Shown here: piece after piece, positions 37,213 to 61,009 of the stretch
Numbering within the stretch: the first letter of the stretch is position 1
Layout: the number at the start of each line of letters is the position of its first letter
Source: an uncultured Acidimicrobiaceae bacterium
GTDB lineage: Bacteria; Actinomycetota; Acidimicrobiia; Acidimicrobiales; RAAP-2
Assembly: GCA_963736525.1 (NCBI GenBank)
Contig: CAVTPF010000004.1
Span: 44,989 to 108,988, forward strand
Direction of reading: 5' to 3'
Length of the DNA stretch: 64,000 nt
Notes under the pieces: model-generated
Databases searched by the model: none
Told to the model about the DNA's origin: nothing
What the model saw: only the letters and a program-made list of their open reading frames with translations
Position numbers and translations under genes: made by a program

Positions 37213-37217
37213 CGGTC

Positions 37218-38030
37218 GTGAACACCGGGGCTGAGCCAGTCCCTCGGGTCGACGTGCTGGGGGTGGGCATCTCGTGTGTCGATCTCGAGACCACGACGGA
37301 GATCTTCGCGAAGTGGATCGCCAACGAGGCGCGCCGGTACGTCTGCGTGACCGGCATGCACGGCGTCATGGAGTCCCAATCGGACGACGCGCTCCGGGAA
37401 ATCCACAACGCATCGGGCCTCACGACGCCCGACGGCATGTCCATGGTCTATGCGGGCCGCTGGGCGGGAGCCCGGCTCGCACGGGTCTACGGGCCCGATC
37501 TGATGGAGGAGGTCCTGGCGGCGGCGCAGGAGGCCGGGTGGTCGAGTTACTTCGTGGGCGGGGCACCCGGGGTCGCGTCGCGTCTCGTCTCGATGCTGCG
37601 GGGCCGGTTCCCAGGCCTCGTGGTCGCCGGATCCTCGAGTCCCCCCTTCCGGCGCCTCAGCGCGGCCGAGGACGAGGAGCTCGTGCAGGAGATCAATGGG
37701 TCGGGGGCCGACATCGTCTGGGTCGGCCTCGGGACGCCCAAGCAGGAGTTCTGGATGGCCGAGCACCGGTCCCGGCTCGAGCCGGCGGTGCTCGTGGGTG
37801 TCGGAGCGGCCTTCGATCTCCTCTCCGGAACCGTCCGCCAGGCCCCCCGCTGGGTGCAGCGGAGCGGCTTCGAGTGGCTCTTCCGGCTGGCCGTGGAGCC
37901 CCGGCGGCTCTGGCGGCGCTACCTCCTCAACATCCCCCGCTTCGCGGTGGCGCTGGTGCGCCGGCCCCCGACGATGCGGCCGACCCCTCCGGGGTCCCCC
38001 CTAGCGCACCTTGACGAACAAGGCGTGTGA
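37218..38030 (+). CDS. WecB/TagA/CpsF family glycosyltransferase
   Basis: VDVLGVGISCVD..., TPDGMSMVYAGR, VGLGTPKQEFWM and SGFEWLFRLAVEPRRLWRRYL. Confidence 0.8.
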   Translation: MNTGAEPVPRVDVLGVGISCVDLETTTEIFAKWIANEARRYVCVTGMHGVMESQSDDALREIHNASGLTTPDGMSMVYAGRWAGARLARVYGPDLMEEVLAAAQEAGWSSYFVGGAPGVASRLVSMLRGRFPGLVVAGSSSPPFRRLSAAEDEELVQEINGSGADIVWVGLGTPKQEFWMAEHRSRLEPAVLVGVGAAFDLLSGTVRQAPRWVQRSGFEWLFRLAVEPRRLWRRYLLNIPRFAVALVRRPPTMRPTPPGSPLAHLDEQGV

Positions 38031-39527: not shown

Positions 39528-39606
39528 GACCTGCAGCGGCCCTTCTTCCTCTCCGGTCTATCCGGTGACGGGTGACGGTGCGGCCCCACCGACACCGGGA
39601 CCCGTG

Positions 39607-41211: not shown

Positions 41212-41610
41212 CGACCCGGAGGTTAGGGAACCCAGGTAAACGGGGGTCGAACGGATTGTGATACCCGGATGATTCCGGGGTGAACAGGGGGTGGATCCGG
41301 CCTCTGGGCAGTTCGGGAATGCTGTGGGCCGACTGGAAGTCCGGTCCGCCGGCAGCGGGGGGCAGCTCGAGCACGCCCGGGAGGGTCCCGCGGATGGCCC
41401 GCGCCCCGTCCGTGTCCGCCCAACGCCACAACGTCGCCTCCGGAACGAGCCTCTGGCGAATCCGGCCCTGCCACAGGCGCCTGCGGTCGACCGCCCACGC
41501 CCGGTGGGCGAACCCGTGCGGGTCGACGTACCACGAGCCCATGCCCGACGGGTTCGCCGCGCTGCGGAGCCGTGCGGCGGCAAGCTTGGGACGGCGGCGG
41601 CGCAACATGG

Positions 41611-41811
41611 TCAGTTGTCGAAGACCCCGACCTGGGTCTTCCCGTGGAAGCCCTGGGGGGTGATGTACTCGAACTGGTCGATCCCGGCCGGCGGCACCAA
41701 GGAGGCGAAGAGCCAGGCGGGGAGCAAGCCGTTCTTGGTGTAGACGACGTTGTGACCCGTGGACACCCGTGGAGACACCGCGAGGCCGTTCGCCTCGGTC
41801 GACACGGTCAC
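41611..41811 (-). pseudogene. Decayed paralogue of the 49967..50488 lipoprotein gene
   Basis: It aligns to the 3' and central parts of 49967..50488, but lacks the signal/lipobox end (TGA just upstream in frame) and about 35 internal codons (...LPAWLFASLVPPAGIDQFEY versus ...LPAWLFAAKGEPITF...MTPPAGIGQFEY). Confidence 0.5.
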
Positions 41812-41914
41812 CGATTGTCCGTTGACGATGACGGTGCCCGACGCGAACGCGGGAGCCGTGGTGAGGCGGCCAGCGCGCCGATTTCAACAGCGAACATCAT
41901 GATTGGTATCGACC

Positions 41915-43063
41915 TCACAGGGTTGGGGGTAGCAAAAGGTACACATTTGAAAACCACTCGAGTGCCAGCGCGAGCACGATCGGCGTGCTGACGAGATACA
42001 CGGTCCAGATCTGCCGCGGTGCCCTGCGATACACGACGAAGGTCACGATGAGGGCGGCAGCAAAAACGAGGCCCCACAGCACCGACGGACCGATCGCAGA
42101 CGCGTCGCCCGCCAGCGCGCGCTGGGACGCGGGCGCGAGCGTCGTCGGGACCGGGGCATGCGCCGGTGCACTGGTCAGCTTCGCAATGACGTAGGCGCGT
42201 CCGGTGGGGATGAAGGGTGCATTGGCCGTGACCAGCGTGAGCCGCGCCGTCCTGGTGGGGCTGATCGGATCCACTTCACCAGCGGTCGCGGTGCCCACCT
42301 GTTCGACCTCGTAGCGAAACACGCCCAGGCCGGTCACGATCGTGATGGGATCACCGCGACGCAGGCTGAGGATGTGGGCGAACGGCGCACCGCTCGTGCT
42401 CCGACGACCCGCTATGACGGAGTTGCCCCTGGTCCCCGGCCGCGCCGTGCCCACCATGGCACCCGGGCCCTTTGCGGTGTCCGCGGCACTGGTCCCCTCG
42501 ACCACGACCTGCTTCAGGCCGATGCTCGGGATGAGCAGCACGGCCACCGGTTGCCCTTCGGGGGGCACGCGGCCGCTGTAGAGGGCCTGCGCTGACGGGG
42601 TCAGGAACTCGTTGAGCAGCGCGTGCTGCTCCCGCTGCTGCTGCAGGCCGGTGAACATGAACGCGTAGACGACGAAGAGCACGAGGCACGCGCCCACGGT
42701 CACGAAGCTCAGGGCCACGGCCAGCATCAGCCGGTCGGCTCGTTGCTCGGTGCTGGCGGCCGGCGCCGCGTCGGTGCGGATCGCCGTCTTGGCTCGATGA
42801 ATGACCGAGACCCTGTCGATCCCTTCGGGATCACGGAACGCCGGGACTGGCTCCGCGACGAGCGAGCGGGTGATGCGCCCCCCGGGCGCGTCCCCGTGGA
42901 GAACGCGCCGGGCCGCGCCACCCGAGCGGGTTCGCGTGCGTGGGTAACGCCCCTCCGTCGGGTCCGGGACGAAATACCTCCGCAGGCGGTGCAGTGAACC
43001 GCGACGTGGGGGCCAATCGCTCACCGGCGGTGCAGGGCGCGCCTTCTCGGCGACCGGCGTCAC
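41915..43063 (-). CDS. Class E sortase homologue with catalytic His and Cys replaced (pseudo-sortase)
   Basis: IPSIGLKQVVVEGT...KGPGAMVGTARPG..GNSVIAGRRSTSGAPF...RRGDPI...RLTLVTANAPF aligns with the class E pattern IP.LGL..VVVEGT..KGPGH..GTA.PG..GN..IAGHRTTYGAPF...LTL.TC. It has an N-terminal helix and two C-terminal helices. The start lies between 42727 (ATG) and 43063 (GTG). Confidence 0.65.
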   Translation of the reverse strand: MTPVAEKARPAPPVSDWPPRRGSLHRLRRYFVPDPTEGRYPRTRTRSGGAARRVLHGDAPGGRITRSLVAEPVPAFRDPEGIDRVSVIHRAKTAIRTDAAPAASTEQRADRLMLAVALSFVTVGACLVLFVVYAFMFTGLQQQREQHALLNEFLTPSAQALYSGRVPPEGQPVAVLLIPSIGLKQVVVEGTSAADTAKGPGAMVGTARPGTRGNSVIAGRRSTSGAPFAHILSLRRGDPITIVTGLGVFRYEVEQVGTATAGEVDPISPTRTARLTLVTANAPFIPTGRAYVIAKLTSAPAHAPVPTTLAPASQRALAGDASAIGPSVLWGLVFAAALIVTFVVYRRAPRQIWTVYLVSTPIVLALALEWFSNVYLLLPPTL

Positions 43064-43082
43064 GACAGGCGCACCGAGGAGC

Positions 43083-45560
43083 TCACACCGGGCCGGGGCG
43101 GGAGCGCGCCGCCCCCAACCATCCCGGTACCTTCTTGAGGCGGACGGCCACCTTGGCTGACCAGGCTCGGATCCGTGTGGACAGCGCATGGCCGGTGTCG
43201 AAGACGTGGCGGCGCAACCCGGCGCTGAGGAACAGCAGCGAACCCATGAGCAGCGCGAGGATCCCCAGGAGGATCACCACCGGGAGCAGGTTGGAGCTGG
43301 CGCTCGCCACCAGGGAGAGCGAGCTCAGTGATTGGTGATGGCCCGACGACGGGGAAGCCGAAGCCTGATGCGAATTCGTCGAGGGGACACCGCCTCCCGT
43401 CCCCTTGATCGTGCCCGGTGTCGTCGTCGTGTGCGACGGGGAGGCCGAGCCCGAAGGTGCGTTCGCACCAGCGCTCGCGGTCGCGGCACTGGCGGTTCCT
43501 CCCGGCTGCCCGTTGACCGGGGCAGGTCCAGCCGACCCGGCGGTGCCCGACCCCGAGGAGCCCGAGGAGCCCGAGGGCCCGGACGGTGCGGTCGTGGTCG
43601 TCGTCGGTGCACCCTCGTTGGCGAAATCGTTCGCAATGTCGTTCTGTGCCTGCTGGTAGAGCGCACTCGGTAGCGGCACGAAGCCGGCAGGCAGGTCCGG
43701 CGTGTCGGAGCCACCGGTCAGGTTCAAGACCTGGCTCAGCATGGCCTGGTCGGCGGCGGCCTGCGTCGCCGAGACACCCCGCGTGGGAACGACGGCATAC
43801 GTGATGGAGGGCATCGGGTAGGCGTTGGGATCGGTGGTCGTGTAGTTGGGAGTGAGCGAGCCGTCGGCGTTCTCGGTGGCGTCGCTCACCGCGGCGTCGA
43901 GCGACTGCTGCGTCGGTAGCACGAAGTTGCCGGATGGGTTCTGGAGGGCCGCCACGCTCATGCCGAAGTACTCGGCGTCCGCCCAGTCCATAGAGGCAAA
44001 TCCCGCATACGGTTCGGCCTGCTGCAGCGTCGGCTGTACAGCCGCGACGATCTTGAGCGCCTGTTGGGAGGGTCCTTGGTACGCTAAATAGGAGGTCAGC
44101 CCCTGTCGCACCGGGGGGAACTGCTCGTCGGTCGGACACGTCGCCAGCGGCTTGCCGGTCGGGTTCAAGCCGGACTGGAGAACCGCCGCCGCCGTTGATG
44201 GCTCGGAGAAGTTCGCCCCGACCGCCGACACGCTGACCACAGGAGCCTTGCACAGCCAAGCGAACAGTTGCCCCGTGGGACCGGCCGTGTCCGATCGCAC
44301 GTACCCGGCGAAGGACTGCGGCATGAGGAACGCGCTATCGAAGTTGACCTCGTTCATCAAGGAGCACTGCGTGATCGGCTTGTTCTTCTTCGTGGAGACC
44401 GGGCAGGGAGGCACCGTGCAGCCGCTGCTCTGGCACGCCACCACGTCGGACGTTGCGATGTTCTCGTAGTATCCGGTCAGCAAACCGGCCACCATGCGCG
44501 GGGTCAGGTCCATGGCGTCTAAGGGCACCAGCTGCTGGTGTGATGCCGTACGCTCCTCGGCGGTGAAGGAGACGACATTGGCGCTCAATGCGATCGGGAT
44601 GAGGGCGAAGTTGCCCATCTTGAGCTCTACCTGCTGGTCCGCCTGTTCGGGATCGTCGGTGAACGCCACGTCGATCAGACCCTGTTGCAGGGACGTGACC
44701 GCGCTGAGGCCGTCGATGGCCGTGTTGAAGGCGATCGTTGGGTCCGGTCCGCCGCATCCGATCCGGGCGGCCACCGGGAAGAGGATGTCAGATCCGAAGT
44801 CGCTCTGCGTGTTCACCGTGTTGGCCCCCGGGCATCCGCTTCCCGAGGCTAGGAAGCTGACGGGAACCACTGCAGTGGTCGAAGGCACCAGCGTGAGCGC
44901 GCCGCTGTTGGTGGGACCTGTGTCGGTGATGTCGACCGAGCATGGTGAGGCCGCGTTGCAGAAGAACGCGCCCGTGTCGGCGTTGTCTCCAGGTGCTGCG
45001 CCTGAGAGCGGCGTCGACGTGGAGTCCACCTCGAGAACCTGGAAGCTCACACTGGTCGCCCCGTTCGGGAAGGCTTCTGTCTGATAGTCCACTTCGGAAA
45101 CGCCCTGACCGCCGGTGTTCACACAGAGTTGGTCCGAGGGAAGCGGTGCCGTGTCGGAGCAGTAGTTGATCTGTGCGTAATCGCCCACGCCCGGCGTCGA
45201 GGTCCAGTCGTAGAGGTTGACGTAGACCCACTGGGCCGGTCCGAGGTCGCTCACCGGGCCCACCTGGTACGTCGGGCAGGTCGTTCCGCTCGGGCACGTG
45301 GCCGGGATGGTCCCGCAGGCGTCGCCGGTCGGGCAGGCCGGGGGGGCAAGCAGATCGTGTGACACCGAGAAGCTCGGGGTCACAGCCACCCCCGGCGCGG
45401 TCACCGCGGTGGTGGTCGTGCCGTGCGCCTTCGCGACGCTCCCGTGCGCCGGGGGGGAACCGGCAGCCCCGTGGCTCGAGGCCGCGGCCTGCGTCACGGG
45501 GATCACGAGGAGGAACAGGCCGGCCAGGAGCGCCGTGACGGCCTTCCTGCCACGCGTCAT
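43083..45560 (-). CDS. Large exported Cys-rich protein with a PstS-fold (type 2 PBP) domain, a Ser/Gly/Thr-rich stalk and a C-terminal membrane anchor
   Basis: The ATG at 45560 follows GGGGGAGG. Signal peptide MTRGRKAVTALLAGLFLLVIPVTQAAA and about 18 Cys. PBP-like blocks: FALIPIALSANVVSF, YVRSDTAGPTGQLFAWL, YPMPSITYAVVP and GFVPLPSALYQQAQNDI. The C-terminal helix is LLPVVILLGILALLMGSLLFLSAGLRRH. Confidence 0.65.
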   Translation of the reverse strand: MTRGRKAVTALLAGLFLLVIPVTQAAASSHGAAGSPPAHGSVAKAHGTTTTAVTAPGVAVTPSFSVSHDLLAPPACPTGDACGTIPATCPSGTTCPTYQVGPVSDLGPAQWVYVNLYDWTSTPGVGDYAQINYCSDTAPLPSDQLCVNTGGQGVSEVDYQTEAFPNGATSVSFQVLEVDSTSTPLSGAAPGDNADTGAFFCNAASPCSVDITDTGPTNSGALTLVPSTTAVVPVSFLASGSGCPGANTVNTQSDFGSDILFPVAARIGCGGPDPTIAFNTAIDGLSAVTSLQQGLIDVAFTDDPEQADQQVELKMGNFALIPIALSANVVSFTAEERTASHQQLVPLDAMDLTPRMVAGLLTGYYENIATSDVVACQSSGCTVPPCPVSTKKNKPITQCSLMNEVNFDSAFLMPQSFAGYVRSDTAGPTGQLFAWLCKAPVVSVSAVGANFSEPSTAAAVLQSGLNPTGKPLATCPTDEQFPPVRQGLTSYLAYQGPSQQALKIVAAVQPTLQQAEPYAGFASMDWADAEYFGMSVAALQNPSGNFVLPTQQSLDAAVSDATENADGSLTPNYTTTDPNAYPMPSITYAVVPTRGVSATQAAADQAMLSQVLNLTGGSDTPDLPAGFVPLPSALYQQAQNDIANDFANEGAPTTTTTAPSGPSGSSGSSGSGTAGSAGPAPVNGQPGGTASAATASAGANAPSGSASPSHTTTTPGTIKGTGGGVPSTNSHQASASPSSGHHQSLSSLSLVASASSNLLPVVILLGILALLMGSLLFLSAGLRRHVFDTGHALSTRIRAWSAKVAVRLKKVPGWLGAARSRPGPV
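44949..45027. repeat. 79-nt segment matching 50631..50709 with one mismatch
   Basis: Aligned by eye, with a single mismatch (gaacgcgcc versus gaacgtgcc). Confidence 0.85.
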
Positions 45561-45811
45561 GGTGCCTCCCCCGACCGCGGCTCGTCCGTGACGTCGCCGC
45601 GCCGGCGACGCGCGATCGCGACGGCCGGCGGCAGGGCCAGCAGAGCCAGGAGTCCGAACGCGGCCAGAAGAACATCGGCGTTGGGCCCGGGCGACTTCAA
45701 CAGGAAAGCAGTGGTGCGCTGCAGGGCGACGCCGGCAACCTGGCCCGGCGCCGCCGAAACCTCGTTGGCCGCCTTCTTGGCCGCCGCGGCCGCGGCGGCC
45801 TTGGCCTGTGC
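45535..45811. repeat. 277-nt segment about 97 percent identical to 50710..50987
   Basis: Aligned by eye, giving about 7 substitutions and one 1-nt indel. It covers the start of the large PBP gene and the anchor-coding 3' end of the upstream ORF. Confidence 0.85.
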
Positions 45812-46183
45812 CGGGCTCGTCGGCGACGTACTGCTGCTGCCGGCACACCGGGCGCCCCAGCTCTCGGCTCGGGCTCCACCGTGAGCAGGCGCAGCGGTCG
45901 CGAGTCCTCCGGCGACGCCCCCTGTGGTGGGGGCAAAGGTAGCGGCGCCGCCGGCCGATGGCGAAGCCGACGCGCTGCCGGTCACCGGCTGCTGGAGCGA
46001 CGCGCTGGCCGATGATGCAAGGGGCGTCGCGGTTGGACGCAGTCGGGGTCGGGCGGAGGTGAAGTCACTAACCGTCTGCGTGACCATGGGGAATGCCGGA
46101 TCAGACCGCGTGAGGCGGCTCCGCAGGCGTATCGGGGTGAAGCGAGAGTCCTGCGAGGGAATGTCGGGTGCCGAGGCTGTCAC
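45557..46183 (-). pseudogene. In-frame deletion chimera: pstC N-terminus fused to the stalk and anchor of the PstS-like anchored protein
   Basis: MTASAPDIPSQDSRFTPIRLRSRLTRSDPAF matches pstC2 MTVTTPDAPAESPRFTPIRLRSRLSRSDQVF. The C-terminus ...[74 protein letters not shown] matches the tail of 50733..52448. The GTG start is the same as in pstC2, and the stop overlaps the next start (ATGA). Confidence 0.5.
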
Positions 46184-46265
46184 TGAGGATCGCGCTCAAT
46201 TCCTTGAGGTCGGTGGTGACGCTGCAGCGTCGCGAGCGGGGCCGGCCGGGACGGTAGACCGAGAG

Positions 46266-46301
46266 CAACGGGGCCCAGCCCCGAAAGGCTGGACCCCGTT
46301 G
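46266..46301 (-). terminator. Strong stem-loop downstream of the 46363..48138 gene
   Basis: CAACGGGGCCCAGCC-ccgaaa-GGCTGGACCCCGTTG, a 15-bp stem with one mismatch. It lies 62 nt after the stop. Confidence 0.55.
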
Positions 46302-46362
46302 TGCCGCGTCTCTGTCTCGGAAGCCAAAACCTCAACGGATTCCGAGTGTGGATCCCTCTCGG

Positions 46363-48138
46363 TTACTGGTTGGCGTTCCCGTCCGTGGTGGAGACGGCGC
46401 AGTAACCCGGGGGGTTGGGCGCCGTCGGGATGGACGTGTTCACGCCACTCGGGCCAACCGCCGGGCCGCCCACGTCCAGGTAGGTGGCACCGCCAGCATC
46501 GCTCGCGAGGAGGCTGATGGCGGTGTGCCCGACGCTGCCTTCGGAAGCCGCGGCCCCCGTCGGGAAGCTCAGGTCGGCGTACGTGGGGCCGCTCGCGGTG
46601 GCGTCCAGCGGAATGAAGCCCTGCTGGAGGATCGTGTTCTCGATCTCGGTCGCGTACCAGATGCCGGTGGCCGGGTCGACGATCTCGTCGCTGGCCCCCG
46701 TCGGCGTCGCGTTGCCGCTGACCGTTTCGGGCTTGCAGACGAACCCGATCTCGCTGACGTAGTTCAGCGTTGCCGCGGTCGCCGGCGGAATGTTCGGGTT
46801 CGAGCCGTTCGAGTACACGTTGTACACGTCACGAGGATCCGGGAACGACCCGTTCAGGACGCTCTGCGGGGTGGGGGCGATGCCGTTGATCGAGCCGAGA
46901 ATAATCTTGCCGCTCGCGCCGGTCGTCGCCCCGCCTCCGCAATCGGCACCGACCTTGCTGTTCACCGTGCCGTCGAGACCTGGCAACACCGTCTTGTCGA
47001 ACGCCTCGGCCTTCAGCTTCTCGCCTCCGCACTGATCGGCGTACCTACCGAGCGAGTAGAACATGATGGCGTCTGCGTAGGTCGAGGGTTCGACGCTGGT
47101 CAGCTCGTTCTCCAAGATGGTATCCGGACCCGCGCAATTGGTGCCGGGACCGGCCGGGTAGACCGCGGGCTTACCCGACGGCGACGGCGTCGAGGCGCAG
47201 TTGACCGAGTTCGTGCTCGCCGTGGGGTCGAAGCCCATGAAGCTCTTCCACGTCGCCTGGGTGCCAGAGCCCTCCTGGGCCGCGTACACGATGATCGGAG
47301 CGGCCTTACCGCCGACCTGGGCCCAGTTGTAGATGGTCCCGTTCCAGATGCCCTGCAGTTGCGCCTGAGTCAGGCTGGACACCTTTGCCGAAGGCGTCGC
47401 TCCGGCCGAGGTCTTGGTCCAGTGGATCCACGACACACCGTCCGTCGCGTAGGCGACGAAGTTGAGGCCCTGGATGTCGGCGCTGCCGGGCTTCCGGGAT
47501 GACCGAGCGTAATCGATGTACGAGATGTTCTCGACAGAGTTGGCATCACCGATGCCGTTGCCTCCTGAGCCCGAGGCCTGGTTGTCCCGACCCTCCTCCA
47601 GCTGGGCGATGCCGTTCGACGACCCCATCGCTGACTGCGATACGGCGATGTCATTGACCGGGTTGTCGAGGTAGGCATTGTCCCCGCCGGCCGCGCCCAG
47701 GTCGGGTGGGATCTGCTCGCTCGTCACGCCCGCTGCACCGTAGAGGCCGCCGTCTGCCGACGGCACCGTCGTCCCGAGGCAGCTGTAGTTGAGCTCCTGT
47801 TGGGAGGCCGGAGCCACGTACGTAAACGAGGTCGTGGTGATGTTGCACCCCGGCGTGTGGTTGAAGAGGGAGTCCATCGCCTGCATCAAGGCGTAGGTTG
47901 TTTGCGAGCCGCTCCCGGTGATGATGTTGTTCTGCGGCTGTGCACCCGGGACCGAGTAGGTAGACCCGGTCTCGTCCGAATGGACCGTGGGGTTGACCGG
48001 CGGTGTGCTCGCGGCACCGGCCGTGCCAGCCCACGAGAGGCAAATGGCAGCTGCACTCGCCAGGGAGGCGCCCATCGCCAACCGGTGGCGACGCCTGCGC
48101 CCGGGTGGCACCCACGCACCTTTCAGTTCCTTTCGCAT
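46363..48138 (-). CDS. Oversized secreted PstS-family (PBP_like_2-type) substrate-binding-fold protein
   Basis: Signal peptide ...ASLASAAAICLSWAGTAGAAS. Blocks: ITGSGSQTTYALMQ, AMGSSNGIAQL, YARSSRKP and IIVYAAQEGSGTQATWKSF. It is 591 aa, against about 300-370 aa for ordinary PstS. AAGGAA lies upstream of the ATG. Confidence 0.7.
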   Translation of the reverse strand: MRKELKGAWVPPGRRRRHRLAMGASLASAAAICLSWAGTAGAASTPPVNPTVHSDETGSTYSVPGAQPQNNIITGSGSQTTYALMQAMDSLFNHTPGCNITTTSFTYVAPASQQELNYSCLGTTVPSADGGLYGAAGVTSEQIPPDLGAAGGDNAYLDNPVNDIAVSQSAMGSSNGIAQLEEGRDNQASGSGGNGIGDANSVENISYIDYARSSRKPGSADIQGLNFVAYATDGVSWIHWTKTSAGATPSAKVSSLTQAQLQGIWNGTIYNWAQVGGKAAPIIVYAAQEGSGTQATWKSFMGFDPTASTNSVNCASTPSPSGKPAVYPAGPGTNCAGPDTILENELTSVEPSTYADAIMFYSLGRYADQCGGEKLKAEAFDKTVLPGLDGTVNSKVGADCGGGATTGASGKIILGSINGIAPTPQSVLNGSFPDPRDVYNVYSNGSNPNIPPATAATLNYVSEIGFVCKPETVSGNATPTGASDEIVDPATGIWYATEIENTILQQGFIPLDATASGPTYADLSFPTGAAASEGSVGHTAISLLASDAGGATYLDVGGPAVGPSGVNTSIPTAPNPPGYCAVSTTDGNANQ

Positions 48139-48344
48139 GTACCCGTTTCCTTTCGCCCGGCGAGCCGGAGTCGGTTCTGCTCCAAGTGTTCTTTTCCGTT
48201 GCTCAGCGATACCGCTCGTGGTGACGCAACGAACCCGGAGACCCTTTGTGTCGCACGCCTGGCAAAAGAGGGAACGGCACCGCCGTCCCCTCGTTCACCC
48301 TCGCTCGTGGCCGGTATTGCCGGCGGTCGATTCGTCACCGGGGC

Positions 48345-48506
48345 GGACGTTAGGAGCCGAAAGTTAACGGATATCGACCAATACGCTACGGGAGATGAAT
48401 TCTTCAGTGACCCCGATGAAAGACAAGGTCACGGCCTTGCACGGCACAAGCGACCGGTTCCGCACACGAACGGAAGATGGCCGTTTGGTGACATCGTTCA
48501 CCCCGG
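48345..48506. promoter_or_regulatory. Conserved 162-nt non-coding module, copy A (paralogue of 55574..55735)
   Basis: Identical blocks are GGACGTTAGGAGCCGAAAGTTAACGGA (27 nt), GGAGATGAATTCTT and GGTGACATCGTTCACCC. On the minus strand the promoter-like geometry is TCACTG-16 nt-TAGCGT (48410-48383). Confidence 0.5.
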
Positions 48507-48571
48507 TAGCGACGTCGCTGCTTGCCGTAGCACCGTTCGTTGGACCCACCCCGATGCCGTCGGACGAAGAG

Positions 48572-48593
48572 GGCGGTGGGCGGACCCACCGCC
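48572..48593. other. Stable hairpin GGCGGTGGG-cgga-CCCACCGCC in an intergenic region
   Basis: A perfect 9-bp GC stem with a tetraloop, read directly from the sequence. Its function is unknown. Confidence 0.4.
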
Positions 48594-48624
48594 GGCGGGC
48601 AGAGATGCGGGTGCGTCGCGTCCC

Positions 48625-48646
48625 GTTCACCCGCATGTTTCACAAC
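48625..48646 (+). promoter_or_regulatory. PHO-box-like pair GTTCACCCGCA TGTTTCACAAC upstream of 48693
   Basis: The first unit matches 10 of 11 positions of G(G/T)TCAYYYR(G/C)G. It lies 47-68 nt before the GTG start. Confidence 0.3.
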
Positions 48647-48692
48647 TCAAAGCTGCGCCCTGGCACCGTGGAGTCACCGGTAGAGTGCTGCC

Positions 48693-49439
48693 GTGATCCG
48701 ATGCCTGCGCACCGCTAGCTGCCTCTCCGCTCTCGCCGTGTCCGTTCCCGTGGCCCTTTTAACCTCCGCATCTGTGGCCACCGCGACGCCGCCTTCCGCG
48801 ATCAAACTTCTGAGCCAGTCCGTCGAAGCAGCGAATTCCAAGGGGTCGCTGACCTTCTCGGACACCACGCGGAGCGGGAAGAACGTCGAGGTGCTCACCG
48901 GCGCGGTCAGTGCACCGACCGCCGCCGAGTCCCTGACCGAGACGGGACACGGCCCGTTGAACGTGTTGTTGATCGGCGACACTATCTACGTGCGCGGCGA
49001 CAGTGATGTGCTGCACGGGACGTTGGGTCTGCCACTCGCCGCCTCCACCGCCAACTCGGAGAAGTGGATCTCGGTTCAGTCGGGCGATAGTGCGTTCAGC
49101 CAGCTCGTCGCACCGCTCAACATGTCGACTGAGCTCAACAACTACGTCCCTGCCGGCCACCTCAAGAAAGGGAGGATCACCACGGTGGACGGCCACAAGG
49201 TGATCCCTCTGACGGGCGCCGCCTCGGCCTCGGCCGCCCAGGGTGGTGCCGGGGCTGTGGCCTTGTTCGTCTCCACCAATGCGCCGTATCTGCCGGTGGG
49301 AGGGACCCTCGTCGTCGTCAGGAGAGGCTCTCCCGGTCTCAGTGAGGTGGCGGCGTTTAGTGCTTGGGGGAGCAAGGTGGTCGCCAACGCGCCAACCGGT
49401 GCCATTCCCTTCTCGTCGCTCGTCTCGACCTCCGGCTGA
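48693..49439 (+). CDS. Secreted hypothetical protein (LolA/LppX-like guess)
   Basis: Signal peptide MIRCLRTASCLSALAVSVPVALLTSASVATA. No catalytic motif was recognised. A C-terminal remnant of a paralogue lies at 26895..26963. Confidence 0.5.
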   Translation: MIRCLRTASCLSALAVSVPVALLTSASVATATPPSAIKLLSQSVEAANSKGSLTFSDTTRSGKNVEVLTGAVSAPTAAESLTETGHGPLNVLLIGDTIYVRGDSDVLHGTLGLPLAASTANSEKWISVQSGDSAFSQLVAPLNMSTELNNYVPAGHLKKGRITTVDGHKVIPLTGAASASAAQGGAGAVALFVSTNAPYLPVGGTLVVVRRGSPGLSEVAAFSAWGSKVVANAPTGAIPFSSLVSTSG

Positions 49440-49486
49440 GGTCGCCCGCACGTCTGAGGGGACCAGGACACACCCTCCTTTGTTCA

Positions 49487-49711
49487 TCACCAGACGAGGG
49501 TGAAGTTGAATGCCGGCACAAAGTCTGTCGACCCGGCGTAGCTGACGGGCACAGTTGCGCTCGCACCCGTGATCCCAGACGACGCGTTGGCCGGGATGTC
49601 CGGTAGTCGTCCGCTCTCCGGCGGCGGGCCCGGCGGACCAGGCATTGTCGCTGGGGTTTCGTAAAGGGCCATTTGCCACGTCCGGAGCGCCGCATCAAGG
49701 GTACGGCTCAA
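49487..49711 (-). pseudogene. Probable 3' remnant of an Ig-like exoprotein gene (paralogue of 26986..28953)
   Basis: The C-terminus ...ASATVPVSYAGSTDFVPAFNFTLVW* compares with ...SAMVTISSAGSTDFAPATFTFTLDW*. Nucleotide similarity covers the first ~60-110 nt, and there is no Ig-repeat body upstream. Confidence 0.4.
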
Positions 49712-49966
49712 GGGCGCGACCCTGGCGGCAGCTCGCGTACTGGCGCGGCGCCATCATGATCCACCCGACCCTGCACCAGGTCTCGGCAGCCGTATGCGGG
49801 CGATGCGGGCCTTTCGTTCACAACGTGGTACGGCGACGCACGCACAGCGAAACTGTGCGAGTCTGCATACAGGAGAAGGGGGCCGAGGAGACGGGCTTCG
49901 CCGAGGTGGCGCGGGACGCCAGGCCGGACTCAGAGGTGAAGCGAAGCCGTCACGATGCGGACGCCG

Positions 49967-50488
49967 TCACTGGTCGAAGATCCCGACCTGAGCCTTGCCA
50001 TGAAATCCGGTCGACGTCCTGTACTCGAACTGCCCGATTCCCGCTGGCGGCGTCATGGTGTGCGACTGCCCGGGCTGAATGGTGAACGACGGCTGCATCA
50101 GCGGGATGAGCGTGATCGTCACCGGTGACGAAGCGAGGTTCGTAAAGGTGATCGGCTCGCCCTTCGCGGCGAAGAGCCACGCCGGCAGGAACCCCTTTGC
50201 CGTCCAGACGACGTTCTGGCCCGTGGCGAAATGCGACGAAATCGCCAGACCGTTCGCTTCGCGGGGCACGGTGACCGACTGGCCGTTGACCATGACTGTG
50301 GGAGTCGTGATTGCGGGCGCCAGCGTGGTACCCGGGGTCTGCCTGCTGGCGCTGGCGGTGGGGGACCCACCGCTGCTCCCACCACAGGCTGACGCGGTCA
50401 ACGCCAGCGCGACCACTGCACTGGCAACGGCCAGCCCTCGGGTGTTGACGGAGTACCGGCGTGCGGCCTTGGGGACGAGGGGTGTCAT
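49967..50488 (-). CDS. Lipoprotein with a cupredoxin-like C-terminal domain (copper ligands not evident)
   Basis: The ATG is at 50488 and the lipobox is LALTASAC. The pattern GEPITFTN....VTITL...FTIQPGQSHTMT.PAGIGQFEYRTSTGFHGKAQVG follows cupredoxin strand spacing, but there is no Cys or Met at the ligand positions. Confidence 0.55.
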   Translation of the reverse strand: MTPLVPKAARRYSVNTRGLAVASAVVALALTASACGGSSGGSPTASASRQTPGTTLAPAITTPTVMVNGQSVTVPREANGLAISSHFATGQNVVWTAKGFLPAWLFAAKGEPITFTNLASSPVTITLIPLMQPSFTIQPGQSHTMTPPAGIGQFEYRTSTGFHGKAQVGIFDQ

Positions 50489-50532
50489 GGTGACGTCGGA
50501 CCTCACAGAGTCGGGGGAGCAACAGGGACAGG

Positions 50533-50736
50533 TTGGAGAACTATTCGAGTGCCAGGGCAAGCACGATCGGAGCGCCGAGAAGATACACGGTCCAGATCTG
50601 TCGCGGTGCACGACGATGCGCCAGGAAGGTGGCCGCGTTGCAGAAGAACGTGCCCGTGTCGGCGTTGTCTCCAGGTGCTGCGCCTGAGAGCGGCGTCGAC
50701 GTGGAGTCCGTGACGGCCTTCCTGCCGCAGCGTCAT
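50533..50736 (-). pseudogene. Composite remnant: large-PBP gene start plus a 79-nt internal piece plus the sortase-homologue 3' end
   Basis: 50710-50736 matches the start region of 43083..45560, with a frameshifting indel. 50631-50709 matches 44949-45027. 50541-50632 matches 41950-42045 at about 80 percent identity and encodes ...RRAPRQIWTVYLLGAPIVLALALE*. Confidence 0.55.
50631..50709. repeat. Partner of repeat 44949..45027
   Basis: See 44949..45027. Confidence 0.85.
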
Positions 50737-50987
50737 GGTGCGTTCCCCGACCGCGGCTCGTCCGTGACGTCGCCGCGCCGGCGACGCGCGATCGCGACGG
50801 CCGGCGGCAGGGCCAGCAGAGCCAGGAATCCCAGCGCGGCCAGAAGAACATCGGCGTTGGGCCCGGGCGACTTCAACAGGGAAGCAGTGGTGCGCTGCAG
50901 GGCGACGCCGGCAACCTGGCCCGGCGCCGCCGAAACCTCGTTGGCCGCCTTCTTGGCCGCCGCGGCCGCGGCGGCCTTGGCCTGTGC
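50710..50987. repeat. Partner of repeat 45535..45811
   Basis: See 45535..45811. Confidence 0.85.
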
Positions 50988-52448
50988 GGCGGCCTGGGCT
51001 GCCGCCTGCGCCGAGCTGGCCGACGTGCCGCTGGTGGAGGTCTTGCCACCCGCCGACGACGCCGACCCCGGTCCGTTGACCGTGGCGGGACCACCGTGTG
51101 CCGCGGCCGGGCCCGCTGCGGCCGTCCCCGCGGTGGCGGTGGCGGTGGCGGCCCCGCCCGATGACGGGGTTGCGGGCGCGCTCCCGATCACGGGCTCGCC
51201 CTGCAGAGGCAGCTGCCCATCAACGTACGGGTTCGGGCAATTCGACGCATTCGGGGCCGGGAGGGCGGTACCGGTGATGCGTTGCACCGCGTCGAAGTCT
51301 GCCTGGACCAGGTTCGGCGGCAGGGGCGAGTATCCCAGCGCACCGGCCGACTGTTGGCCCCGGCAGGCCACGAACTGGACGAACTGACCCTCCTCGGCCT
51401 GCTTGTCAGACGATATCTCGCTCTGCTCGGCCATGATGAGGTAGCTGTAGGCCGAGATGGAGTAGGCCGTCGGCTGCGTCGACTCGAAGACGGGGACCAG
51501 GTTCTGCTCGAGGTCCGGCTGCAGCGCGTCGGATTCCAACGCGACGGCGTCGGCCGTTTCGGAGGGCTGGACGTACGCCCCGCTGGCGTTCTGTACCGCC
51601 GCGCACGGGTCGTGGTGCAGGATCGCGTAGGCCGTCTCGACGTACGTGATGGAACCCGGGTTGCCGTAGACGTAGTTGGACGCGTTGTCAGACCCGGACT
51701 CGCCGCTCCAGTTGCCGAAGTTGTAGGGGCCCACCGTGCGCTGTCCCCCCTGCGGGATCGGCCAGATGGCCTGCGCCCCGGGCGGCGACTGCACGGCACT
51801 GGTGAAGGCCGACCACGCGGACCCCTGCAGGGTCGAAAGGTAGTCCGAGAAGATGTAGTTGTCGCCCGACGCATCCGTTCGGTAAACGACGACGATGGGT
51901 GTGTTCGGCAGCTGCACGCCCGGATTGAGTGCGGCGATGGCCGGGTCGTTCCACTTCGTGATGGTGCCGCTGAACATGCCGACCATGACGCTGGAGTTGA
52001 GCTTGAGCGACGTGATCTGGTTGCCCAGATTGTCCTGGAGGTTGTACATGAGGCAGGTCGCGCCCGCAACGTCGGGCAGGTACTGGTAGCTGAACCCCGC
52101 TGCCGGCTCCTGGTTCGCCTGCCCGGTGCTGTAGCCGATTTCGCTCGCACCGAAGTCGACCAGCGGGTACTGGGCGAAGTTGTTGAGACCGATCACCGAC
52201 GACGTCGTCGCGTAGTTGATGTTGTCGCCGTAGAGGCTCTGCACCTGCGAGGCCCACTGGTTAATGGCGACGGCGGCATAGCTCGAACCGGTCCCGGAGA
52301 TCGTGGGACCCGACGCGCCGGCGACCTGCGGACGCGTGACGAGCAGACCGCAGGCCGCGGCCAGGCATGCCATTATGCAGGCGATTCGGCTCGCCGCCGC
52401 GGGCACCCGCCTCCTGGTCGGGGTTTCAGCCAAAACGGCCATGGACAT
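50733..52448 (-). CDS. PstS-like phosphate-binding-fold protein with an Ala-rich stalk and a C-terminal membrane anchor
   Basis: The start at 52448 or 52442 overlaps the pstB2 3' end. The signal is [37 protein letters not shown]. The blocks [25 protein letters not shown] and [19 protein letters not shown] mirror PstS1. The tail is [37 protein letters not shown]. Confidence 0.75.
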
Positions 52449-53265
52449 AGTCAGACGTCCTCGGGTCGACGGGTTGGGCGAAGATCTGGGTCGTCGGTCC
52501 CGACTCGACGATCCGCCCCGGCGTGTTCTCCTCGGCGAGGAAGAAGGCGCACGAGTGCGAGACGCGCTGGGCCTGCTGCATGTTGTGGGTGACGATGACG
52601 ACCGTGACATCCTCGGCGATCTCGTCGATCGTCTGCTCGATGCGGTTGGTCGACGCCGGGTCGAGCGCCGAGCACGGCTCGTCCATCAACAGGACCTTGG
52701 GGCGTACGGCGAGGGCCCGGGCGATGCAGAGGCGCTGCTGCTGGCCGCCCGAGAGCGCTCCCCCAAGGTCACGGAGCCTGTTCTTGACCTCGCTCCACAG
52801 TCCCGCCCGGGTGAGGGAGTACTCCACCAGGTCGTCCTTGTCGTGGATCCTCGTTCTCGTGAAGCGCAGGCCCGACAGCACGTTGTCGCGGACCGACATG
52901 GCCGGGAACGGGTTGGGGCGCTGGAACACCATGCCGATCTGGCGCCGCACCTCATTGGCCCGTTGGGTCGCTCCGTAGATGTCCTCGCCGTCGAGTTCCA
53001 CGGAGCCCGCCAGCTGTGCGCCGGGAACGACCTCGTGCATACGGTTGAGGATACGCAGGAAGGTCGACTTCCCACATCCCGAGGGTCCGATGAGAGCCGT
53101 GACCTGGGAGCGCTCCATGTCAAGGTTGACGTCCTCGAGCACGCAGCGGCTGCCGAACCACGCGCACACACCGCGCGCCACGAGCTCACCCGCCTGCGGG
53201 GCCGCGGTCGCAGCCCCGTTTTTGCTCGCCTCGTGCACGGCCGGGGTCGGCTGGGTCGTCGTCAT
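52426..53265 (-). CDS. pstB: Phosphate ABC transporter ATP-binding protein (second copy)
   Basis: [36 protein letters not shown] and [11 protein letters not shown]. The ATGA overlaps the pstA2 stop. Confidence 0.9.
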
Positions 53266-54494
53266 GGCGAGTCCCCTCTCGGGCGCATGACTCCCGAGGC
53301 ACCACGCACGGCCGCGCCCGCCGCGCCTTTCATGGCGGCGTTCGCCTCCCTCGCGTTACGGCGTCCCCGGATCTTGTTCCCGAGCCACGTGCTGCCCAGG
53401 ACCCGGGCCAGGATGAAGATGATGAAGACCATGATGAAGAGCACAAGGGCCGCCGTGTAGCCCAGCTGGATGTCCGCCGCCTGCGACGATCGTACCTCCG
53501 TGTAGGCCAGCAGCGATAGAGCCGACTGGGGCCCGCTGAACGGGTTGGCGTTCATCAGCTTGTTGCCGAAGATGGTGAGGATCAACGGCGCCGTCTCGCC
53601 GAGTGCCACGGCCACGCTGATGAGGACGGCCGTGATCAGGCCCGACTGGGCGGTGGGGAGGACGACGGACCAGACGGTCCGCCACTGCGGCGCGGCCAGC
53701 GCGGCGGACGCCTCCCGCAGGTCGTCCGGCACGATTTTCAGCACTTCCTCGGTGCCCCGGGTCACCGTGGGCAGCAACAGGACGGCCAGGGCCAGCGCCC
53801 CGGCGAAGCCCGAGTAACCGAAATGGAGCGTCTCGATCAGGAGGGAGTAGACGAAGGCACCGGCGACGATGGCCGGGACGCCGCTCATCGCAGTGACGAT
53901 GATCCGGACCCAGCGCGTCATGCGGCCCCCGACCTCGTTTAGGTAGACAGCGGTGAGCACCCCCGCCGGAACGCCCATCATGGCGGCCAGCCCGATCTGC
54001 TCCAACGTGCCGACGATGGCGTGGGCCACCCCCGGCTTCGGGCACGGCTCACCCGGGACGCACAGCTCGAGCACGCCCTTCTGCGTGGCGAAGAGGAGAT
54101 GGATGGACAAGAGCTGCCAGCCCTTGATGAAGAGGAACACCACGAGCAGGACCAGGGGGGCGAACATGCACAACGCCCCGAGCGTGACCAGCGCGGCTAC
54201 CGTGCGGTCCGTGGCGACACGGCGCCCGTAGACCTGCGTGTTCACGGCCCAGTACATGGCCAGGAAGAGGACGAACCAGCAGATGACGAATCCGGTCGGT
54301 CCCGAGAGGAACGTCAGCTGCTCGAAGAGGATCCAGACCGTGGCGAGCGACGAGGCGATGGAGACGGCGAGCACACCCAGTTCGCCGGGCTGCATCTCCC
54401 TCGGCCGGCGCGGCACCTTGCTGCGGGGCCGCGGGTACGTGGGCGTCGGTCGCGGCGGTGGCGCCAGGACGGGTCGCTGATCGGTGAGGGCCAT
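53262..54494 (-). CDS. pstA: Phosphate ABC transporter permease (second copy) with a Pro-rich N-terminal extension
   Basis: The ATG at 54494 overlaps the pstC2 stop (TGATG). It has the [15 protein letters not shown] loop and six helices. Confidence 0.85.
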
Positions 54495-55495
54495 CAGTGC
54501 GCCTTGGACCGGCTGACGATGACGGACGCGATGAAATTCACCGTCAGGGTGAACACGAAGAGCACGAGTCCGCACGCCAGCAGCGCCGAGAGGCCGAGCT
54601 TCCCACCGGACCCGAACCGGTTGGCGATCAGCGCGGCGATGGAGTTGCCGCCGGACTGAAAGATTTGTTCGGAAATCCCGTAGTTGAGACTCAGGATGAT
54701 GGAGACCGCCACGGCCTCGCCGAGGGCGCGGCCCAGGCCCAGCATGATGGCCCCGATGGTCCCGCCGAACCCGAACGGGAGCACGACGTCGCGCACGACG
54801 CGGGCGCGGGTGGCTCCGAGTGCCATGGCGCCCTCGCGCTCACCGACGGGCGTCAACGAGTAGATCTCGCGGGTGATCGACGTGACGATGGGCATGATCA
54901 TGATCCCGACCAGCACCCCGGCTATGAAGTACGAGGACGTGAAGACCACCGTCCCGTTGGCGACGTGGAAGATGGGAATGAAGCCGAGGTGCACCGTCAA
55001 GAACTTCGCGATGTCCTTGAGCCGCGGTTGGAGGAAGAAGAAGCCCCAAAGGCCGTAGATGACGCTGGGTACGGCGGCCATGAGGTCGACCATGGACGTG
55101 AGAAATCCCTTGAGTGGGAAGAAGCCCAGGAAGCTGCGCGGCGCGTACTCGTTGATGAACAGCGCGGATCCGATCGACACCGGCACCGCCACCACGACGG
55201 CGATCAGGGCGATGACGACCGATCCGTACAAGGCGGATTCGACGCCGAACTGGGGATGGGCGCCGGTGGTGACGAAGCCCGTCGTCGTGAAGAACTTCCA
55301 GCCGGCGGCGCGCAGGGCCGGCAAGGCCTGAAGGAAGAGGAAGAGCCCGATCAGGATCAGGACGAGGAAGGTGAAGCCGCCTGCGGCCTTGGTGACGAGC
55401 CTGAAGACCTGATCGGACCGGGAGAGCCGGCTGCGCAGCCGGATCGGGGTGAAGCGGGGGCTCTCGGCGGGAGCGTCAGGTGTGGTGACTGTCAC
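54494..55495 (-). CDS. pstC: Phosphate ABC transporter permease (second copy)
   Basis: GTG start. It has the EGAMALGATRARV EAA loop and a PstC-like helix pattern. Confidence 0.85.
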   Translation of the reverse strand: MTVTTPDAPAESPRFTPIRLRSRLSRSDQVFRLVTKAAGGFTFLVLILIGLFLFLQALPALRAAGWKFFTTTGFVTTGAHPQFGVESALYGSVVIALIAVVVAVPVSIGSALFINEYAPRSFLGFFPLKGFLTSMVDLMAAVPSVIYGLWGFFFLQPRLKDIAKFLTVHLGFIPIFHVANGTVVFTSSYFIAGVLVGIMIMPIVTSITREIYSLTPVGEREGAMALGATRARVVRDVVLPFGFGGTIGAIMLGLGRALGEAVAVSIILSLNYGISEQIFQSGGNSIAALIANRFGSGGKLGLSALLACGLVLFVFTLTVNFIASVIVSRSKAH

Positions 55496-55573
55496 TGAAG
55501 AGCACTTTCATGTTCCCTCTGAGTTGTCAGTGCTGCCGCCCTGATCCGCCGAGAACGCTCAGCCCCGGTCGCC

Positions 55574-55735
55574 GGACGTTAGGAGCCGAAAGTTAACGGA
55601 GTTCGACTAACACGCTACTGGAGATGAATTCTTGAGTAACCCTTGCTATTCCCGAGGTCACTGACTTTCCGCGCCAATGAGCCTGTCACGCCACGCGAAC
55701 AGAAGATGACAACGAGGTGACATCGTTCACCCTCG
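55574..55735. promoter_or_regulatory. Conserved 162-nt non-coding module, copy B (paralogue of 48345..48506)
   Basis: It has the same three identical blocks as copy A. The minus-strand geometry is TTACTC-16 nt-TAGCGT (55629-55602). It sits between divergent pstC2 and the Wzy-GT gene. Confidence 0.5.
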
Positions 55736-55845
55736 TTCTTGTCGAAATAAAAGGCCCTATGATTTTGCCCGTCGAGCGCTTGCCTCGATGGGCAGCGGCG
55801 CACCAATCTGGCGCTCCCTGAAAGCGAATTGACCGAGATGACGCA

Positions 55846-58611: not shown

Positions 58612-58783
58612 ACAGGGTGAATGGGCGGTTTGACCCGTTTGACAGGGCCTCCGTGCTCGGACACACTGAGCCGCGTTCTGATTGAGCGCGGGGCGCACTC
58701 GTCGGAATGCCAAGCATTGGCATGCCATCCGTTTGACACCTCGGACTGCAGAGAACCTCTTGGCCACATACGACCGACCGCCG

Positions 58784-60979: not shown

Positions 60980-61009
60980 CCGGGCGGTCCTCCCGGCAAC
61001 ACGCTCGGA

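Follow-up and report, generated by a model that had tools for sequence, protein, structure and literature searches.

Pst-type phosphate importers and sortases each rank among the textbook machinery of the Gram-positive surface, though no link between the two is reported in the sources searched. Importers of the ATP-binding cassette (ABC) type with tethered or fused binding proteins are known, among them GlnPQ and OpuA, in which the binding domains are fused, and some archaeal binding proteins carry membrane anchors. The control of pst genes has been described in Streptomyces, where PhoP binds 11-nucleotide (nt) direct repeats upstream of pstS, termed PHO boxes, and where termination sites located between pstS and pstC are taken to account for the excess of pstS transcript (PMC7866108). 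The present analysis concerns a 64,000-nt stretch of contig CAVTPF010000004.1 from an uncultured Acidimicrobiaceae bacterium (hereafter the window, meaning the whole of this stretch), in which a second set of pstC, pstA and pstB genes is accompanied by three long PstS-like binding proteins, a sortase-fold membrane protein lacking the catalytic cysteine and a small lipoprotein. These genes belong to a conserved actinobacterial set, here called the module, in which a phosphate ABC importer of the Pst type is supplemented by surface components of its own. Its existence raises the question of how phosphate is captured across the thick wall of monoderm Actinomycetota.

The G+C content of the window is approximately 69%, and real genes were told from spurious open reading frames (ORFs) by codon-position G+C. 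Domains were assigned from Pfam and NCBIfam, and junctions were read directly in the sequence. An earlier note on this DNA had collapsed the duplication and given the genes as one minus-strand order; the gene sizes, orientation, junctions, hairpin and binding-loop sequences that it reported are as claimed when read directly, and the single order is, as the note itself had it, a reconstruction, the physical layout being two units and not one operon. Between 55.8 and 41.6 kb the minus strand carries two runs of genes, with a 1.5-kb stretch holding one plus-strand gene between them. The upstream run, unit B, comprises a conserved element, pstC, pstA, pstB, the gene for a 571-amino-acid (aa) PstS-like protein, deletion scars and a lipoprotein gene. 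The downstream run, unit A, comprises a second copy of the element, the gene for a 591-aa PstS-family protein, a hairpin, a chimera of pstC and 571-aa gene remnants, the gene for an 825-aa protein, the sortase-like gene and a lipoprotein gene remnant. The features are as follows.

55573-55760, minus strand: conserved upstream element, copy B; promoter or operator candidate directly 5' of pstC
54494-55495, minus strand: pstC, 333 aa; NCBIfam TIGR02138, 251 bits against a cut-off of 196
53262-54494, minus strand: pstA, 410 aa; TIGR00974, 215 bits against a cut-off of 193
52426-53265, minus strand: pstB, 279 aa; TIGR00972, 326 bits against a cut-off of 343; Pfam ABC_tran E = 1.5e-34
50733-52448, minus strand: tethered PstS, 571 aa; TIGR00975, 198 bits against a cut-off of 205; PBP_like_2 E = 3e-24
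50499-50709, minus strand: deletion scars of unit B, about 210 nt; a piece of the 825-aa gene (79 nt) and the 3' end of the sortase-like gene
49967-50488, minus strand: small lipoprotein, 173 aa, intact copy; lipobox, Thr-rich linker, beta-rich domain
48693-49439, plus strand: 248-aa secreted protein between the units; recurrent neighbour of the module
48344-48503, minus strand: conserved upstream element, copy A; precedes the 591-aa gene
46363-48138, minus strand: 591-aa PstS-family protein; PBP_like_2 E = 1.8e-11; large insertions, no C-terminal anchor
46266-46301, minus strand: GC-rich hairpin 3' of the 591-aa gene; 16-bp stem, z = -3.8
45557-46183, minus strand: chimeric remnant ORF, 208 aa; first ~35 codons of pstC and 3' end of the 571-aa gene (stalk, anchor)
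43083-45560, minus strand: 825-aa protein; Cys-rich beta domain, PstS-fold domain, stalk, transmembrane (TM) helix
41915-43063, minus strand: Cys-less sortase-fold membrane protein; Pfam Sortase E = 3e-19; 382 aa from GTG at 43063
41611-41883, minus strand: lipoprotein gene remnant; degenerate copy

The junctions of the module show translational coupling. That between pstC and pstA is CACTGATGG (TGATG, a 1-nt overlap) and that between pstA and pstB is CCATGACG (an ATGA overlap); pstB overlaps the 571-aa gene by 23 nt or 17 nt, and the stop of the chimeric ORF overlaps the start of the 825-aa gene, again as CCATGACG (ATGA). The longest ORF for the sortase-like gene starts at 43189, and the NCBI call is of 270 aa only. 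The module is additional to an ordinary pstB-pstS-pstC-pstA operon, present as previously claimed and separate from it at 14082-18219.

Conservation of the module in Actinomycetota

Seventeen loci were examined, these being the ones brought in by a relative of the large 825-aa protein or of the sortase-like protein. In all 17 the marker gene lies beside other genes of the module, which is far more than chance would give and bears out the conserved neighbourhood in relatives that the earlier note had made a condition of its reading. This holds over a range of large-protein identity that extends from 70% down to approximately 28%. A pstC, pstA and pstB set, a long PstS and the large protein occur together in 15 of the 17. 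The sortase-like gene adjoins a Pst importer and stalk-tethered PstS proteins in each of the 15 contexts that hold it. The loci span Acidimicrobiales, Nocardioides cynanchi and Polymorphospora, the two latter being cultured genera outside Acidimicrobiales, and the module is thus conserved across at least three orders of Actinomycetota. As N. cynanchi is a cultured host, direct study of the module is feasible.

A closely related locus (L002, with a large protein 70% identical to that of the window) carries the whole module in single copy and on one strand, in exactly the reconstructed order: a 589-aa binding protein, pstC, pstA, pstB, a 569-aa binding protein, an 834-aa protein, the sortase-like gene and a 170-aa protein. 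A Bac_transf gene directly follows the module both there and in the window. A scan of genomes at species level gave ten more loci, all in metagenome-assembled genomes (MAGs) of Acidimicrobiales. The order 591-like, pstC, pstA, pstB, 571-like, 825-like, sortase-like was found by tblastn in eight Acidimicrobiales loci (L001-L003, L006-L009 and L011), with the lipoprotein last where found, and two short contigs (L005, L012) hold those parts of the order that lie within reach. Hence the order obtained by collapsing the two units of the window, as the earlier note had done, is the ancestral one.

Outside this group, the same core set is found on four metagenomic contigs reached from distant sortase-like relatives (L014, L015, L017, L018), consisting of pstC, pstA, pstB, a binding protein of 524-617 aa, a 743-852-aa protein without Pfam domains and the sortase-like gene. 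Nocardioides cynanchi (CP044344) and Polymorphospora sp. NPDC050346 have these core genes too, but with their order permuted. In the Acidimicrobiales loci the core set is preceded by a PstS-family protein that is rich in insertions and has no tether, and is followed by a small lipoprotein. Flanking genes vary by lineage, with polysaccharide genes in the lineage of the window and leuCD, tsaD or mfd elsewhere; because the flanks differ between lineages, the module is a self-contained unit.

The databases and literature searched offer no description of this gene set, in agreement with the earlier note. No curated family describing the module was found in Pfam or NCBIfam, and full-text literature searches on Cys-less sortases and pseudo-sortases, on sortases with PstS or in Acidimicrobiia, and on membrane-anchored PstS returned only general reviews, none of which describes it. 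The 825-aa protein is itself rare, with 34 clusters among 5.8 billion proteins; it has no functional name, and the few named members are each a 'hypothetical protein'.

Some neighbouring genes and partial loci were also seen. The 248-aa plus-strand protein between the two units of the window has no Pfam or NCBIfam match, and homologues of it adjoin the module in L001 (on the same strand, after the lipoprotein), L011 and L015. One locus (L004, 622-4255, in the same MAG as L003) holds an 825-like gene followed by a 591-like gene only, without pstCAB or a sortase-like gene, and a weak opposite-strand ABC-ATPase match lies approximately 5 kb from the pair; this may be a partial extra copy of the module. 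In N. cynanchi (L013) an SLT_2 lytic-transglycosylase gene lies directly 3' of the module at 15630-16367, and the upstream flank holds a Big_7 protein and a two-component system.

The binding proteins, the sortase-like protein and the lipoprotein

The module PstC matches Escherichia coli PstC (9k3x_B) with E = 1e-41, with the equivalents of R237 and E241 kept as GLGRALGE in both proteins, and PstA matches E. coli PstA with E = 6e-32; both score above the curated equivalog cut-offs. Arg220 of PstA was considered as a marker of substrate and rejected: the residue is Val in the module protein, and it is uninformative because the canonical PstA of the window lacks the Arg too.

The 571-aa protein consists of a signal peptide, a PstS domain, a stalk rich in Ala, Gly and Ser, a C-terminal TM helix and an RRRR tail, and its family keeps the anchor (PGVAL..LLGxPxP, TM helix, Arg run). 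All the phosphate ligands of PstS are kept across 15 homologues, the equivalents of T10, S38, D56, R135, D137, S139, G140 and T141 being S, S, E/D, R, D, S/A, G and D/E. The pattern is the same as that of the canonical PstS1 of the window, with Asp or Glu at the Thr141 position in both; Mycobacterium tuberculosis PstS-1 also has Asp there. The loops that contribute to anion binding read HRSDSSGD in PstS1, YRTDASGD in the 571-aa protein, RSDTAGP in the 825-aa protein and AAQEGSGT in the 591-aa protein. By sequence, the 571-aa protein is an orthodox phosphate binder and the 591-aa protein has a consistently altered pocket. The latter aligns to the short PstS structures 4q8r and 4gd5; its loop, [SA]AQEGSGTQ as against sREDGSGTR in short PstS, is kept across loci, and its conserved C-terminus, GFC.VSTTDGN, carries no anchor.

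The 825-aa protein has a signal peptide, a Cys-rich beta domain, a PstS-fold domain with Cys-containing inserts, a disordered stalk, and a TM and cytoplasmic helix. In an AlphaFold2 model made with a 34-member alignment (mean predicted local distance difference test, or pLDDT, of 72.9), residues 75-645 form a confident core, 650-755 the disordered stalk and 758-809 a long helix. The periplasmic-binding-protein fold previously assigned to it stands: the protein has a partial PstS profile match (E = 1e-12), and the top solved-structure matches of the model in Foldseek are all PstS, from M. tuberculosis (PstS-1, PstS3) and E. coli (1pc3, the best, with E = 5.8e-15, then 4lvq, 8ods and 9k3x_E, the last from E. 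coli; TM-scores of 0.74-0.79 on the target). In the pocket, D302, equivalent to Asp56, is invariant throughout the family, R422, D424 and G427 are nearly so, and the consensus loop is VRSDxSGSTG (R-x-D-x-S-G-S/T). Given this consensus and the invariant Asp, a phosphoryl-type ligand is still the best guess for the 825-aa protein, and the family probably still binds a phosphoryl group.

Residues 81-234 make up the all-beta, Cys-rich domain, which taken alone has no Pfam or NCBIfam match. It resembles the neocarzinostatin/macromomycin family in being all-beta, in a weak match to 2mcm (E = 0.007) and in a match to PF00960 in one of the 34 members of the 825-aa family, and differs in being fused to a PstS fold and in having no chromophore context. 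These matches fall under any curated threshold, and the assignment was rejected as anything but a weak lead.

The sortase-like protein scores 93.8 bits with the class E model NF033747, for which the cut-off is 160. In its predicted structure (mean pLDDT 83.4) a sortase barrel is flanked by one TM helix on the N-terminal side and two on the C-terminal side, and the model superposes in Foldseek on sortases of classes D, E, C and A, with a TM-score of 0.82 to 4d70. Against Streptomyces avermitilis SrtE (5go6) the root-mean-square deviation is 1.8 A at 33% identity; the catalytic His is replaced by Arg (AGRR for AGHR) and the Cys by Ala (LTLVTA), and the downstream Arg is kept. The pseudoenzyme reading of the earlier note is therefore upheld for the window protein, and it can be extended to a family. 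The family has at least 150 diverse representatives. When 1.84 billion representatives were searched exhaustively with a profile, 1971 matched at E <= 1e-30, and statistics were taken from the best 147 of these and from 120 close homologues. Among the 120, the catalytic column never holds Cys, being mostly Ser, then Ala, Gly and Thr, and the His column holds Arg in 104 and His in 16. The best 147 representatives give a similar picture, with S 102, A 32, T 6, G 5, C 1 and L 1 in the catalytic column and R 112, H 25 and K 6 in the His column. In a 59-member alignment T277, L278, T280 and Pro380 of the tail are invariant. Since members with Ala or Gly sit in intact modules, the conserved function of the family cannot need the nucleophile, a pattern that marks a pseudoenzyme in which a binding site is retained. 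Current pipelines annotate these Cys-less proteins as 'sortase A' or 'class D sortase'.

The C-terminus of the family is itself unusual. The window protein ends LLPPTL (41915-41935), and nearly all Cys-less members (P0035-P0301) end in LLP-x-T-[LMF]-COOH right after the last TM helix; among the 120 close homologues the end LLP-x-T/S/L-[LMFIV] is present in nearly all, and an LLPxT-type tail is found in at least 121 of the best 147 representatives. The tail is a lookalike of the LPXT sorting motif without the Gly or anything beyond it, and the last three residues of the model have a pLDDT of 61. Many members of the 825-aa family have S..R.LLP at the start of the TM helix, loosely like a tail such as RLLPATL, a resemblance that can serve as a lead only. 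Two unusual proteins contain a sortase-like part. One (P0178, 980 aa) joins a beta-domain and PstS-fold protein to a sortase-like C-terminal part ending LLPATL, in a topology that is not obviously consistent, and the other (P0249, 838 aa) joins a glycosyltransferase-like membrane protein to a sortase-like part; these are either true fusions or artefacts of gene calling or frameshifts.

The loss of the nucleophile from a protein that retains its core motifs and an LPxT-like tail poses the question of what a sortase fold does without its chemistry. One tentative suggestion, on balance not expected to prove right, is that the Cys-less family would be a non-catalytic class of sortase whose groove holds the anchor segments of the binders, or its own LLPxT[L/M]-COOH tail, and so organises the tethered binders at the importer. 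If this were true, a sortase would have been turned into an assembly adaptor for nutrient uptake that is widespread in Actinomycetota.

The last gene had been described as a cupredoxin-like lipoprotein, of which the second half stands for one copy. The intact copy of unit B (49967-50488) has a lipobox; in all nine full-length homologues the lipobox, L-[AV]-A-[SA]-A-C-[SG], follows the signal peptide. Its Cys is nearly invariant, and the C-terminal domain is conserved in nine loci. The copy at 41611-41883 is a remnant, without signal peptide or lipobox and with a 38-aa internal deletion relative to the nine homologues, and it aligns to L002 in pieces only. The Pfam match to Cupredoxin_1 is sub-threshold (E = 0.013, 16 bits against a cut-off of 27, in two of ten members), and no conserved Cys that could be a copper ligand is found in the beta-rich domain.

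Expression signals and the role of the module

The elements upstream of the two units share a 70-nt core that is 90% identical between copies A and B, making it better conserved than the coding DNA, and have long invariant blocks in common with the upstream region of L002; recognisable versions occur in L003, L008, L011 and L012. Within the element, GTCACC/GTCATC units lie 11 nt apart, and a series GGTCAC-ATTCAT-GTAGCG-GGTCGA-GTTAAC ends approximately 10 nt before TAACGT; the first pair of repeats in the core is spaced by 12 nt rather than 11. No known RNA family was matched by Rfam anywhere in the window, and so the element is not a described riboswitch or leader. Between 41 and 56 kb no sigma-70 consensus promoter was found, and terminator-like sites are at background level, the hairpin after the 591-aa gene having no U-tract. 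This hairpin has an equivalent in L002 (z = -5.6), and its conservation would fit a parallel with the Streptomyces termination sites mentioned above. Upstream of the canonical pstB, at 13982-14085, four units, GTTCACCCTGA / GATTGCGCTCC / TGTTGCCAGGC / GTTCACTTGGC, are arranged at 11-nt phasing; the GTTCAC units there are 33 nt apart, with weaker units between, and their form is that described for the PhoP boxes of Streptomyces. By analogy, phosphate-starvation control of the module can reasonably be inferred.

The favoured reading, which is regarded as moderately probable, is that the module is a phosphate importer served by membrane-tethered binders, with the dead sortase as a non-catalytic partner. 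The tethered proteins would reach into or through the wall on their stalks, and what they capture there, orthophosphate or a phosphoryl group, would be handed to PstCA. A further binder, with an altered pocket, would be the free 591-aa protein, of which an excess would be produced owing to the hairpin behind its gene. The dead sortase would retain its peptide-binding groove and, without catalysis, partner the anchors or the wall in docking or assembly, and the upstream element would be a phosphate-starvation promoter of the PhoP type.

Several points weigh against this reading. The module pstB and the 571-aa PstS fall slightly under the curated equivalog cut-offs. The 825-aa protein of the window shares the PstS phosphate ligands only in part (RSDTAGP, with D302 invariant), having Ala and Pro at the Ser139 and Thr141 positions, and the first binding loop of its family is acidic (TESEFG, as against GSGST in PstS). 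Consistent loss of both loop arginines is confined to the 591-aa family, and the consensus of the 825-aa family keeps R-x-D-x-S-G-S/T and the invariant Asp. Judged by these pockets, two of the three binders may not bind free phosphate. Ser at the nucleophile column of most sortase-like proteins makes residual catalysis possible in those members. No LPXTG or LAXTG motif is present before the anchors of the 571-aa and 825-aa families, or in the real frames of the window, and the docking role given to the sortase-like protein is a conjecture. Finally, a search of the window for a two-unit PHO-type pattern gave 4 matches where 2.0 were expected, none of them in promoters, and the PhoP reading of the upstream element may reflect resemblance only.

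The altered pockets lend themselves to another interpretation, which is nonetheless unlikely: that the substrate which the module takes up, or from which it removes phosphate, is not free orthophosphate. Candidates would be polyphosphate, an organophosphate, a different oxyanion, or a polymer of the wall or capsule that carries phosphate or sulfate groups. The pockets of both the 591-aa and 825-aa families are altered, and the module of the window lies within a polysaccharide-biosynthesis locus (26986-41583 and 55846-62980), a context common to L002 and not to the distant loci, with the following genes.

26986-28983 and 38001-39527: Big_3_5 proteins
28619-30361 and 35140-37212: beta-helix proteins
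30349-31962: flippase
33125-34147: sulfotransferase
37191-38030: WecG-type transferase
39607-41583: Bac_transf
55846-58611: Wzy_C fused to a GT1 glycosyltransferase
58682-60979: AAA_31 (chain-length or kinase-type) protein
61010-62980: GH18

Sulfate-activation genes or sulfotransferases also adjoin the module in three of the other loci, as sulfotransferases downstream in L002 (18045-19758), cysD/N/C beside it in L001 (14907-17681) and an adenosine phosphosulfate (APS)-kinase fragment in L015 (11455-11787), and are absent from the other contexts examined. Against this, PstC and PstA are near-canonical, scoring above their equivalog cut-offs with the pore residues of PstC kept, the 571-aa binder retains the full phosphate pocket, and the polysaccharide and sulfur context is absent from L013, L014, L016, L017 and L018. 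Wall-spanning capture and a ligand other than phosphate, both raised by the earlier note, are putative roles.

A more doubtful proposal is that the sortase-like protein is an active enzyme with Ser, or Thr, in place of Cys, which cleaves or transfers the anchors of the binders and thereby releases them or links them to the wall. Ser does occupy the nucleophile column in approximately 70% of the family, the TLVT strand is kept, as are the downstream Arg (approximately 70%) and, in a minority, the His, and the tethered proteins end like sorting signals in a hydrophobic segment and a basic tail. However, in approximately 25-30% of members, the window protein and those nearest to it among them, this column holds Ala or Gly although the module is otherwise intact; Arg replaces the general-base His in approximately 76-87%, and the anchors of the tethered proteins lack a preceding LPXTG or LAXTG motif.

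It is very unlikely that the module mainly senses phosphate rather than importing it, with the extra binders modulating PstSCAB-dependent signalling to the Pho two-component system. Pst systems do belong to a phosphate-sensing complex in other bacteria (PMC7866108), and a canonical Pst system is already present in the same genome; yet phoU, phoR and phoP are all missing from the conserved module at every locus examined, and a complete set of transport components has been kept under selection.

Duplication with complementary loss in this genome

The two units of the window are two diverged tandem copies of the module with complementary deletions, jointly amounting to one full gene set. Unit B corresponds to L002 1-345 joined directly to 2455-7275, the first binding-protein gene having been cleanly excised; after this come two scars, the 79-nt piece from within the 825-aa gene and the sortase-like 3' end, and then the lipoprotein gene. 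The first of these scars is 99% identical to 44949-45027, inside the 825-aa gene, and the second, from the sortase-like gene, is 80% identical to 41911-42043. Unit A corresponds to L002 183-2624 joined to 7001-10971, and is without pstA and pstB, keeping no more than the first ~35 codons of pstC and a minor part of the 571-aa gene. The chimeric ORF at this junction is 75% identical in its 5' part to the start of pstC (46096-46189 against 55408-55501) and 97% identical in its 3' part to the end of the 571-aa gene (45533-45811 against 50708-50987). The scars and the complementary deletions relative to L002 therefore imply that both units were once complete and that each has lost what the other kept. 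A single full gene set would now be expressed from two units, with the same conserved element before each, and the arrangement provides a clean natural example of duplication and complementary loss within an operon.

Apart from two patches, the segments shared by the units are 71-80% identical, from which it follows that the duplication, or the gain of a diverged second copy, is old. The two patches are adjacent, total 359 nt and are 97-99% identical (45533-45811 against 50708-50987, and 44949-45027 against 50631-50709), which suggests later gene conversion or recombination between the old copies. The lipoprotein remnant of unit A is nearer to L002 than is the intact copy of unit B, and the promoter and 5' region of pstC are nearer to L002 in unit B than in unit A. 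An assembly artefact, in which a chimeric join of two strains or a repeat mis-join disguises one ordinary copy, is highly improbable even though the source is probably a metagenome-assembled contig and the patches are nearly identical, as the units differ by so much outside them, each holds internal scars of lost genes (the pstC stub joined to the 571-aa gene 3' end; the 79-nt 825-aa gene piece joined to the sortase-like 3' end) that are no product of an assembler, and a unique 1.5-kb stretch with its own gene lies between.

Comparison with known systems

The nearest described system is PstSCAB, as in E. coli and in M. tuberculosis with its PstS1, PstS2 and PstS3. The pstC, pstA and pstB genes of the module are clear homologues, the 571-aa binder keeps the phosphate pocket, several PstS paralogues per organism are found in both cases, and a hairpin or terminator follows the first binder gene. 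The module differs in that a long stalk and a C-terminal TM helix, in place of an N-terminal lipid anchor, tether two of its binders, that one binder reaches 750-850 aa with an extra Cys-rich beta domain, and that another is without the loop arginines. Furthermore, a Cys-less sortase-fold protein, joined in Acidimicrobiales by a small lipoprotein, is a fixed part of the set, and phoU is not.

With the class E sortases (Streptomyces coelicolor SrtE1, 5cuw; S. avermitilis SrtE, 5go5 and 5go6; Thermobifida fusca SrtE) the sortase-like family shares the fold, the N-terminal TM helix, the conserved TLVT strand and, in most members, the downstream Arg. By contrast, essentially every member has Ser, Ala, Gly or Thr in place of the Cys and most have Arg in place of the His, two C-terminal TM helices and the LLPxT[LMF]-COOH tail are added, the score lies under the class E cut-off, and the genes are linked to pst genes rather than to LAXTG substrates. 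More generally, the module is like GlnPQ, OpuA and the anchored binding proteins of archaea in holding several binding domains per transporter at the membrane beside the translocator. It differs from these in its tether, which is a disordered stalk of approximately 100-150 residues with a C-terminal helix, in having its binders as separate polypeptides, and in the presence of a sortase-fold partner.

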